A DNA stretch of 64,000 nt from Euglena gracilis (Eukaryota): NCBI GenBank assembly GCA_039621445.1, contig CP154954.1, forward strand, positions 30,756,395 to 30,820,394, read 5' to 3'. The position numbers and the translations under genes were made by a program. Shown one piece after another: positions 29,334-52,725 of the stretch (within the stretch, counting starts at the first letter, position 1; every line of letters begins with the position of its first letter). A model generated the notes under the pieces. It was not told where the DNA came from. It searched no databases and was given only the letters and a program-made list of their open reading frames with translations.

Positions 29334-32300
29334 GAGCATGGTTCTGCTTCAAAGAGACAGGCTTCATCGCGAACCTCTAATTTTTGTGACCTGGTTTTTA
29401 TGTGGCCTGGTAAAATATGGCACTGGTTTTTGGGTGCTAGTTTTGTCTCTGAGAGAGCATTCCCCGACTCGGTTTTGTTCAAAATCCGCGGTTTAGAATG
29501 TCGTTTCTGTCGTGAATTGTGAAAAAAAAATTAATTTATGCCCAAAAAAAGTCCTGAAAATGGTCATTGAAGTCCGGGGGTGTTGTGACACCAATTCTGC
29601 TTTTGCTGAAGCTTGTTTCAGGTGCCTGGGAATTATGGAGGTGCCAGCCTGTCTGCAATGAGCTGCATAACTATGGGTTGGAGACAGGGGAGAAGGTTGC
29701 CATCAAAAAATGTGGATCGTGCAGAGATTTTGTGGAAACAGTTTGTTTTGTTGATAGAAGACGTTGATGTTCCTCAACCCATTTTCAAAATTATCTCTCA
29801 AAACACAACGAAGTCTCTGATGTCGATTTTTAAGTATCCGGAGGACGGCAAAAGAATCTTGCGCGAGATCAAGCTGATGCAGATCATGAATCACCGCAAC
29901 ATCCTGACCATCCTGGACCATACCCTTGCTGAGTTCAGAAAGTTGCACCCGTGCTCTCCTTTTCACATTTTGCAAGAGGGGGACCATGTAGGTAAACTAC
30001 AGGGATCCCACAAATTCTCTGAAGAGCATGAGAGCAAAGGGCAGAGGAGACTGATGTGTTTTCTTTTGAGGGAAAATGATCCTTGGTGGAAAAAGCCATT
30101 TTCCGACGAATTCGTAAATGAGAGGAAATTTCATTAAAAATTATTCGTGATCATTCATGGTTATTTGTGATGATTTGTGATTATTCGTGATGATTTGTGA
30201 TTATTTGCGATTATTTGTGATTTTGGAAAATCCCCAAATTTCTGCTGGTTCGTGATTTTTCATGATGATTCACTATTACCCCACCTGTTTTGTTTCTGAG
30301 TTTGTGCAATTGGAGAACAGGTGGTTGGTGTTGGGCAAACTGATATGCTGCACAACATTGTGCTGTCCTGGAGGTCAGAGGAGGATGACAAGTGCTGACA
30401 AAATATCAAGCTGATTGGGACGAATTGTGAGCTTGAAGTGTCTGTAACATGGTGGGCCACGAGGACGTGTTTGAATGAATGGGGCATCAAACACCTTTTT
30501 GGCGTTGTTGGCTTGATTGTTACCTTTCCATCCATTTTTGTCTGTTATTATTGGGTCATGGTTGGCCATTTCAGGCCAATTTTGAAATATACATCTTTTT
30601 TGTCTTGTTCTGGAGTCCTCCTTGAGGTTGACTCAGGTTCCCTCACCATCCTCCGGATTTTTTTTTGCAAAATTCTGCAATTTTTTTCACAAAGTCCCTG
30701 CAAAATACCCCAAAATACTGCAAGATTGCATTTGTATTATTGTATTCATTTGTATTATTATTGTATTCAGACCGGCGTTCCCCCCCACCGACCCGACCCC
30801 ACCGACCTGACGCCGGGTTCACGACAGAACCGGCGTTCCGCCCCACTGGTTTGGGAACGCCGGTTCTGTCCATGAGAAAGGGGCCAGGAATGCTGGTTTT
30901 GTCCAAAACCCGGCGTCCCTGACGCCGGTTCTGTCATTCTTAAAAATGTCATCAAAAGTGCCCAAATATGGCCCTGAGCTCCTGACATGACTGTTTTACA
31001 GCTAACCCCCGAAATGTTGGCCCCAAGTACCCAAAACCCTGGCCCCTGGTACCCGAAATGTTGGCCCCAAGTACCCAAAACCCTGGCCCCTAGTACCCAA
31101 AATATTGGCACCAAGTACCCAAAACCCTGGCCCCAAGTACCCAAAATATTGGCCCCTGGTAATTTGGATCTAATTTCTTTCAGCCATCCATCTCCCAATT
31201 TCTTTTGAGTTACCCCCCCTTTTCTTAGCATCAATGCCTGTCCGCCCGATGCGCCGCGGTTGCTCATTTGCCCATGCAAAACAAATGATGAAATGAAGCT
31301 ATCAAAATGAAGTTTCGGGGGGGGGGTCAAATCTGACCCGCTAGACAGCAGCTAGGCGGTCCAATTGTTGTTTTGACTACTACTTTACAATTTACTATTT
31401 ACTATTTACTGAAACTAGATTGGCGCTGTTTTAGAATACGAGTCGGCGTGCCGGTTGTTCACTGCAATTCACAATGGATGAAGGGGGTCCACAGTCGGCT
31501 GTGCGTGCCGACACATGCACACCCGATGTGTGGGTGCTTTGTGCTCTCACGTGTGTATACCCGCATATGTACGTGTTGATGTGTCTGTGAAGATAGATGT
31601 GTGTGTATATGTACATGCATGTAAATATCAATTTGTGTTTGTATGTGAGAAAATACCGTGCAGCGTGGAAAAATCTGATGACCACCACTGGCTGTCTGTT
31701 GAAAAGAGCTTTTGATCGAGGGGTAATTTGGTACGCCAACGTTGCACACAGCCAGAGATACGATCACAATCGTCGGATCAGCCAGAATCGGAGTCGAAAT
31801 TTGTGGTGATTTTCGGTGCTGTTTGGTTTAGGCATAATGAACCATACAGAAACAATTTTTCTCTTCAAATCGACGACCTGCGGGGTCCAGGGGGGTACAA
31901 GAATTTTGAAATTAGGATTTCCCAGGGACAGGAAACAAGAGTACTGAATGACCGTGGCTGAATTTGGTGGTGATCACAGTTGTTTGATAAAAAGAGCTTT
32001 TAATTGTGGGGTGAGTTTGCAATTTTCACTGCCAGAGATACGTCGGAATTTGGCGAAATCCAAAGTAGTCTAGCATTGCAGGTTAGTGGTCGGAGATTGG
32101 TCTTGGGAGTGTCCTTTGACTGAAGGTTGGGGACGCCGGTTCTGTCGTGAACCCGGCGTCCCAGTGTGAATCGTGAATAGTGTGTCAACAGTGAAAACCC
32201 GACGCAAATAGTCATGAATGATCACGAATAATCACAAATAATCATGAATCAGAATGATCCAGCTCGGCATCTGGTTGCCAACCTCCGGCACCTTTTTCCA

Positions 32301-52725: not shown

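Follow-up and report, generated by a model that had tools for sequence, protein, structure and literature searches.

Non-GT-AG introns with complementary ends in a mitogen-activated protein kinase gene of Euglena gracilis

Among the introns of euglenids, the nonconventional class is described by a pairing model in which nucleotides +4, +5 and +6 of the intron are matched with nucleotides -8, -7 and -6 (PMC6221363, PMC3935182), in a fold said to be unlike that of tRNA introns or self-splicing introns (PMC6221363). In 2025 the nonconventional splicing code was defined genetically as 5'-N3CDG-/-CH'GN5-6|R, knock-in mutagenesis indicating that the pairing, the spacer lengths and the purine are needed for splicing, with excision ascribed to an "unknown machinery" (PMC12501133). 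The same source counts 71.8% of Euglena agilis introns as nonconventional, 61.2% of these fitting the code and 38.8% lying outside it; for E. agilis, 84.4% slidable introns have been reported. According to a review, nonconventional introns are excised in circular form, and later than the conventional introns (PMC11282704). Here we analyse a 64,000-nt stretch of the Euglena gracilis genome (the window; GenBank assembly GCA_039621445.1, contig CP154954.1, positions 30,756,395 to 30,820,394, forward strand), in which a mitogen-activated protein kinase (MAPK) gene with at least 14 introns, 13 in the coding sequence (CDS) and one in the 3' untranslated region (UTR), occupies about 24 kb of the + strand. 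A preliminary description made from the sequence alone had listed 13 introns, all with non-GT-AG borders defined by end pairing; it missed the non-GT-AG intron in the 3' UTR. Its observation is partly confirmed, in the main holding good, and its interpretation is supported: with a probability of roughly 0.9 these are euglenid nonconventional introns whose borders are defined by end pairing.

The introns of this gene share with the described class their non-GT-AG borders, CAG and CTG at +4 to +6 and -8 to -6, a helix running inward from there, a purine at the start of the downstream exon, frequent border repeats that make the borders slidable, and a euglenid host. Their lengths range from 106 nt to 6.7 kb. 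Nothing categorical sets them apart: five of the 13 CDS introns pair triplets other than CDG and one has a mismatch, within the 38.8% outside the code. The assignment already made from the sequence agrees with the class as described in the relevant parts of PMC6221363 and PMC12501133, and the closest proteins are MAPKs that bear euglenid transcript names. Earlier work describes the phenomenon in detail, down to the positions themselves, and there is no new kind of biology here; the value of the locus is that of a verified worked example, in which 10 of 13 borders were placed correctly from the pairing rule alone. A gene with nonconventional introns only is not rare either: by our own arithmetic it is expected for 0.718^13, or about 1.3%, of E. 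agilis genes with 13 introns, if introns are independent.

RNA was placed on positions 32901-52900 of the window from four runs of four studies, i.e. the contig runs X1 and X3 and the raw-read RNA runs X21 and X24; X21 and X24 are two of four raw-read RNA runs available under the species label, and the RNA origin of the contigs in X1 and X3 was presumed. Each joint carries a stated ambiguity of position, and borders were compared allowing for slide-equivalent positions, defined as border placements that yield the identical mRNA. Mapping with non-canonical joints allowed, the check proposed in the preliminary description, shows that the gene is transcribed and is spliced at non-GT-AG joints (Table 1). 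In X21, the joints of introns 4-13 are each supported by 66-188 reads per orientation, except for the form of intron 12 described earlier (56+39 reads); the contigs of X1 and X3 carry every joint in the table except that one, and both have the other form of this intron. At intron 3, loose ends pile up at 36585, in 297 reads of X21, 77 reads of X24 and a single contig of either contig run, and the loose letters are those of window positions 29884-29913, giving the joint 29913>36585, a slide of -2 from the borders first proposed. Splicing is essentially complete: X21 depth is 0.05+0.15 in the interior bin of intron 13 (51577-52243) versus 75+67 and 84+74 in the bins with exons on either side of it. 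The strand bias in X24 (17.7 versus 0.64; 24.3 versus 0.86) fits RNA from the + strand.

The end dinucleotides listed for the 13 introns are all present in the sequence as given, and the borders of introns 3-10, 12 and 13 (10/13) agree with the RNA. Exons 1-3 lie upstream of the RNA-covered stretch; the non-GT-AG character of the introns, claimed for all 13, therefore stands on RNA joints for introns 3-13 and on orthologue colinearity only for introns 1 and 2. Intron 11 had been placed at 47103-51029, off by 9+3 nt, which is refuted by the joint 47093>51033 (3939 nt skipped, ambiguity 3; 132+132 reads in X21 and contigs in X1 and X3): the true intron removes a further 12 nt (four codons), whose residues have no counterpart in any of the 10 aligned orthologues, and the RNA version aligns to the orthologues gap-free. 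The error arose because the strongest helix had been followed and not the CAG/CTG register. The true intron 11 sits at that register, although a longer helix lies further in; the code is therefore a better guide to the joint than the strength of the helix, and, predicting borders as it does, it should enter euglenid gene finders.

Pairing was analysed on the RNA-corrected borders. The ends are complementary in a fixed register, +4 to +6 being paired with -8 to -6 in 12 of the 13 CDS introns (11/13 when only Watson-Crick pairs are counted). The literal code N3-CDG/CH'G-N5|R is found in seven CDS introns (2, 4, 6, 8, 9, 11 and 13) and in one form of the UTR intron; the six CAG/CTG introns counted earlier (2, 4, 6, 8, 9 and 13) were right for the coordinates then used, and the corrected intron 11 makes seven. 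The remaining introns had been said to pair in the same register with compensatory bases, which is true of introns 1, 5, 7, 10 and 12, with all three pairs in place (triplets in Table 1), but not of intron 3, where two of three pairs form and the other is a C.A mismatch. Four of these five non-CDG introns are verified by RNA, with joint counts like those of their neighbours, and the gene thus offers natural introns with compensatory triplets as candidates for the existing knock-in assay. Three pairs in register followed by a purine occur in 12/13 real introns versus 5.35% of 20,000 random pseudo-introns (binomial P ~7e-15), and in 17/832 decoy 3' ends. The purine said to start every downstream exon is present at the positions chosen: it opens the exon at 12/12 pairing-defined positions and after all three non-slidable introns.

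The helix is at least 4 bp long in register in 12 of the 14 introns, reaching inward 4-12 bp, and pairing is specific to cognate ends: the duplex energy averages -18.5 kcal/mol for cognate ends versus -10.6 for non-cognate ones, and none of 20,000 permutations reached the observed mean. Direct repeats at the borders make 10 of the 13 CDS introns slidable, introns 5, 6 and 7 having no repeat at all; the mean number of equivalent positions is 3.2 (42 over 13 introns) versus 1.71 for random pseudo-introns, which fits the slidable share reported for E. agilis.

Several observations weigh against the assignment or limit it. Introns 1 and 2 lie outside 32901-52900 and are backed by no reads. Intron 3 lacks the in-register triplet, its contiguous in-register helix being 0 bp; the commoner form of intron 12 (51087-51258) agrees with none of the pairing registers; and the five non-CDG introns break the literal CDG/CH'G code. 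Co-folding of the intron ends, also proposed in the preliminary description, gave stronger cognate duplexes, but folding of whole introns did not follow: the terminal triplet is kept in the minimum free energy (MFE) structure of only 4/10 short introns (2, 5, 6 and 8; in intron 2 the terminal helix has a pair probability of 0.99-1.0), the terminal pair probability being ~0.5 in two further introns and at most 0.09 in four (1, 9, 10 and 13). Because of this low recovery, whole-intron MFE was rejected as a border predictor; the ends have the capacity to pair, which energy-based folding of the entire intron does not dependably recover. The data also bear on joints and pairing, not on the chemistry of excision, and none of the 15 joint rows listed, with 202 further rows outside the listing, links an intron's end to its own start. 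The gene contains no conventional intron against which the order of removal could be set. Lastly, intron 1 has a GT-AG alternative of the same length 7 nt downstream (29341-29687) with a single residue changed. It seems unused: its donor is GTTCT, only 0.35 of its last 20 nt are pyrimidines, and it would place H at the junction, where 9/10 orthologues have T and 1/10 has S, as the nonconventional model predicts. Intron 1 is thus very probably nonconventional.

A tentative extension of the pairing rule, to which we give rather less than even odds, is that the true signal may be the geometry and not the letters CAG/CTG, so that any three pairs between +4 to +6 and -8 to -6, with the purine, would suffice if the helix continues inward. 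In its favour are the five non-CDG introns and the 3' UTR intron, whose two forms use separate triplets of a single helix, with the cuts 3 and 5 nt beyond them; against it, the middle position of the triplet is described as sequence-limited in a short test intron (PMC12501133). If true, it would generalise the CDG/CH'G code and could explain some of the nonconventional introns (38.8%) that the code leaves out.

In the explanation that we favour, each intron is marked in the RNA by a helix between its ends and not by GT-AG. The helix begins at +4 to +6 and -8 to -6 and usually extends inward, leaving 3 nt unpaired on the 5' side and 5 nt on the 3' side; it would bring the two junctions together, and the cuts would be measured from it, with the purine as first nucleotide of the downstream exon. 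The enzymology may be independent of U1 and U2AF and consist of structure-measured cleavage at two sites followed by ligation, possibly of the endonuclease-plus-ligase type, which we regard as the likeliest route, though at somewhat short of even odds. Present data do not separate cleavage and ligation from a helix-guided spliceosome. The latter is a live rival, quite possible if less than probable, in which the same introns would be removed in two transesterifications by a standard or specialised spliceosome, the helix juxtaposing the splice sites in place of recognition by U1 and U2AF. The literature leaves room for it, in that the machinery is left open (PMC12501133), noncanonical introns of other species can be spliceosome-dependent (PMC11170887) and spliceosomes can convert lariats to true circles (PMC11146597). 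Intron 2, which starts GTG, matches the conventional 5' consensus of E. gracilis, GTGTG (PMC11170887), at 3/5 positions, in favour of the spliceosome. Against it, the first 5 nt of the introns score no more than 0-3 of five matches to that consensus, the last 20 nt are on average 0.53 pyrimidine, i.e. there is no pyrimidine tract, and the strict helix spacing of 3 nt and 5-6 nt (PMC12501133) resembles a ruler-type nuclease more than branch-point chemistry.

That the introns are ordinary spliceosomal ones (GT-AG, GC-AG or AT-AC) with borders misplaced by a few nucleotides is highly improbable. Canonical pairs that keep the frame do lie within 12 nt of the borders of 9/11 RNA-verified CDS introns, besides the one at intron 1, upstream of the RNA-covered stretch; yet GT-AG, GC-AG and AT-AC are absent from every slide-equivalent position of the 13 CDS introns and the UTR intron, for introns 3-13 the RNA joints, over their stated range of ambiguity, leave no room for canonical ends, and no canonical decoy is among the joint rows listed. 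The decoys were rejected because they are common near the borders and unused wherever RNA is available. At intron 1 the weak donor, the missing pyrimidine tract and the orthologue residues count against the alternative, and no canonical alternative for intron 2 retains the conserved peptide. That the joints are cDNA artefacts, made when reverse transcriptase switches template at short direct repeats, or come from a copy of the gene elsewhere that has no introns, is barely credible: template switching favours repeats, which the borders of 10/13 introns have in excess, but introns 5, 6 and 7 have none, the joints are identical in four runs of four studies, depth falls to ~0 in the intron interior beside exon bins of at least 75, the joints together keep a 478-codon frame colinear with 10 orthologues, and a retrocopy would itself stem from mRNA spliced at these joints.

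Two introns of the gene have two excision forms each. For intron 12, the joint 51083>51256 is accompanied by 51086>51259 (91+96 reads in X21), 3 nt away, so that the first residue of exon 13 is D or G. The share of 51086>51259 is 187/282 joint reads in X21 (66%) and 15/28 in X24 (54%), and it tracks the share of C at the variant position 51331 (278/394, 71%, and 20/42, 48%), which suggests that alleles differ in the codon that opens exon 13. The intron itself starts with the same three letters as the variant, a coincidence expected by chance about once in 16 and one that alternative excision would explain; the second form could therefore reflect an allelic dinucleotide or alternative excision. 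The 14th intron was revealed because reads leave the covered stretch at 52779/52781 into letters found at 53020. It has the forms 52780-53019 (X21, 223 reads) and 52782-53017 (X3 contig), the second starting 2 nt later and finishing 2 nt earlier on the same 9-bp helix, and both keep N3 and three pairs on the 5' side and three pairs, N5 and the purine on the 3' side. The pattern is compatible with a ruler counting from the helix; a strain difference is another possibility. Having two joints with both ends differing, introns 12 and 14 resemble the "overlapping" alternative splicing described for E. gracilis (PMC11170887), with the difference that the UTR forms shift by 2 nt oppositely on one helix and the intron 12 forms by 3 nt in the same direction, the latter perhaps being allelic.

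A structure-set cut and a circular product, the second known for nonconventional introns from the literature, are also features of bulge-helix-bulge tRNA introns, in which RNA structure and not sequence sets the cuts. There, the tRNA splicing endonuclease makes the cuts and the intron leaves as a circle. Here, in contrast, there is no arrangement of a 3-nt bulge, a 4-bp helix and a 3-nt bulge; both cuts fall outside a single helix, by 3 and 5 nt. Transposon-derived introns (introners, and introns resembling miniature inverted-repeat transposable elements, MITEs, as in Micromonas, dinoflagellates and Fritillaria) likewise combine terminal inverted repeats with border repeats similar to target-site duplications, and differ in being removed by the spliceosome, as reviewed in PMC11282704. 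Intron 8, taken as 44846-45181, has a 4-nt direct repeat TGAC flanking a 12-nt terminal inverted repeat with one mismatch, and its helix extends outward past both junctions too; its anatomy is MITE-like in the sense that the literature discusses for nonconventional introns. Within the window none of the introns copies another element in full, the only sequences shared being nested repeats, and a MITE or transposon origin is for this reason unsupported here.

Joined, the exons (Table 1) form a single open frame of 1437 nt on the + strand, from ATG at 29142 to TAG at 52723-52725, encoding a predicted 478 amino acids (aa). Upstream of the ATG, a putative spliced-leader acceptor would be expected at one of the AGs that follow a pyrimidine run at about 29100-29141. 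The product carries the kinase motifs HRDLKPAN and DFG, a TNY activation loop (TSY in one orthologue) and APE; the earlier identification as a MAPK gene is supported by the open frame, the motifs, Pfam and the orthologues, and judged by its sequence the gene is a euglenid MAPK of the CMGC group. Pfam Pkinase matches 4/8 exon translations tested, one of them above the curated cut-off (exon 6). With exon 10 as query, 24 of 79 candidate proteins had E <= 0.001, forming a tight group with 70-94% identity, the best with 94% over the exon; among them are EG_transcript_6740 (79%) and RCo028634 (78%), which we take to be transcriptome names from Euglena gracilis and Rhabdomonas costata. Exon 13 had no match in the protein collection. 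As no exon 10 match is identical and exon 13 has none, the gene's own product is missing from the collection, and the protein support for the junctions hence stems from orthologues or paralogues with 70-94% identity. In tblastn, related proteins match the window on the exons of the preliminary description. The best relatives of the orthologue P0001 among solved structures are all MAPKs, E values running from 4e-97 to 1e-84 over the whole kinase domain: these ERK-type kinases (PDB 4o2z, "MAPK 3, putative"; MPK6, 5ci6; ERK2) share HRDLKPxN, DFG, T-x-Y and APE with the gene product, which differs in its TNY and in a C-terminal extension of ~120 aa that the orthologue alignment confines to euglenid sequences. 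A metagenome scan gave seven loci, the best (L001, 1808 nt) with 88% identity and the rest with at most 58%; L001 is presumably a spliced transcript, its length being that of the longest contig listed for P0003.

Table 1. Exons and introns of the MAPK gene, RNA joints with their ambiguity, and reverse transcriptase (RVT_1) open reading frames (ORFs) of the window
Feature	Position	Strand	Length (nt)	Ends, pairing and content	RNA joint (ambiguity)	Evidence
CDS exon 1	29142..29333	+				open frame; orthologue tblastn matches
Intron 1	29334..29680	+	347	GA..TG; CAT/ATG; 7-bp in-register helix		predicted from orthologues, not RNA
CDS exon 2	29681..29718	+	38			open frame; orthologue alignment
Intron 2	29719..29824	+	106	GT..TC; full code GTG-CAG / CTG-ATGTC|G; 12-bp helix		predicted from orthologues, not RNA
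CDS exon 3	29825..29915	+	91			open frame; tblastn; read loose-end letters
Intron 3	29916..36586	+	6671	GA..TG; slide -2..+3; CAT/ATA (2/3 pairs)		loose-end joint
CDS exon 4	36587..36641	+	55			frame; RNA
Intron 4	36642..40190	+	3549	AA..CT; full code AAC-CAG / CTG-CTGCT|G	36640>40190 (1)	RNA joint
CDS exon 5	40191..40233	+	43			frame; RNA
Intron 5	40234..40465	+	232	GG..GC; not slidable; TAT/ATG (one G.U pair); 12-bp helix	40233>40466 (0)	RNA joint
CDS exon 6	40466..40562	+	97	HRDLKPA region		Pfam Pkinase 38.8 bits; RNA
Intron 6	40563..40770	+	208	GA..AA; not slidable; full code GAA-CAG / CTG-CATAA|A	40562>40771 (0)	RNA joint
CDS exon 7	40771..40833	+	63	DFG region		frame; Pfam; RNA
Intron 7	40834..44811	+	3978	AG..GC; not slidable; TGG/CCA; 12-bp helix	40833>44812 (0)	RNA joint
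CDS exon 8	44812..44849	+	38	TNY motif runs into exon 9		frame; RNA; alignment
Intron 8	44850..45177	+	328	GA..AT; slide -1..+3; full code GAC-CAG / CTG-GTCAT|G	44848>45177 (4)	RNA joint
CDS exon 9	45178..45226	+	49			frame; RNA
Intron 9	45227..45663	+	437	AC..TG; full code ACC-CAG / CTG-GTATG|A	45226>45664 (1)	RNA joint
CDS exon 10	45664..45872	+	209			protein search; Pfam; RNA
Intron 10	45873..46948	+	1076	TC..CC at code-fitting position; slide -7..0; CCT/AGG; 9-bp helix	45865>46942 (7)	RNA joint
CDS exon 11	46949..47096	+		ends at 47093-47096, not 47102		RNA; orthologue alignment
Intron 11	47097..51035	+	3939	47094-51032, slide 0..+3; at +3 full code AAC-CAG / CTG-GTCCA|G		RNA joint
CDS exon 12	51036..51083	+	48			RNA; alignment
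Intron 12	51084..51255	+	172	GG..CT; TAG/CTA; second, commoner form 51087-51258	51083>51256 (1), form described earlier	RNA joints
CDS exon 13	51256..51462	+	207	C-terminal extension		frame; RNA
Intron 13	51463..52566	+	1104	GG..GC; full code GGC-CAG / CTG-CATGC|G	51462>52567 (1)	RNA joint
Exon 14	52567..52779	+		CDS end (TAG 52723-52725) and start of 3' UTR		frame; RNA
Intron 14 (3' UTR)	52780..53019	+	~240	non-GT-AG; two forms		loose ends 52779/52781
RVT_1 ORF	1341-2600	+				Pfam
RVT_1 ORF	3932-5989	-				Pfam
RVT_1 ORF	16899-18236	-				Pfam
RVT_1 ORF	24558-27113	-				Pfam
RVT_1 ORF	59272-60657	+				Pfam

RVT_1 domains were found in 5/27 long ORFs scanned; these ORFs occur upstream and downstream of the gene, whose surroundings are thus rich in retroelement debris. 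A 735-aa ORF at 18818-21022 (- strand) has a weak Dam-methylase match below the cut-off, and no Rfam family reached its gathering score within the window. Tandem repeats are many in the long introns (27 rows): intron 7 holds (CTAACC) x 10.7 at 42566-42629 with 98% match, an interstitial complement of the TTAGGG-type telomere repeat, intron 9 the microsatellite (CAA) x 40 at 45425-45543, and intron 11 (TACAG) x 35 at 50591-50764. A dispersed repeat of ~430 nt is common to introns 4 and 10 (37220-37652 and 45940-46358); others are 43745-44140 / 62212-62633 and 37891-38119 / 38736-38972 / 63675-63916. The copies are 78-85% identical; some lie nested within introns 4, 7 and 10, others downstream of the gene. 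The RNA contig runs have a very high summed depth over intronic repeats, e.g. at 47.5-49.5 kb. Tracts of ~20 C residues are present in introns at 36049-36068, 39221-39240, 44936-44955 and 46289-46308, where they draw hundreds of poly-C reads and produce spurious joints. Two of the 15 joint rows listed that go back (44955>36049 and 46308>44936), considered as circles, and two that skip (36068>44936 and 44955>46289) have ends in such C-homopolymer tracts with poly-C loose ends, and were set aside as low-complexity artefacts.

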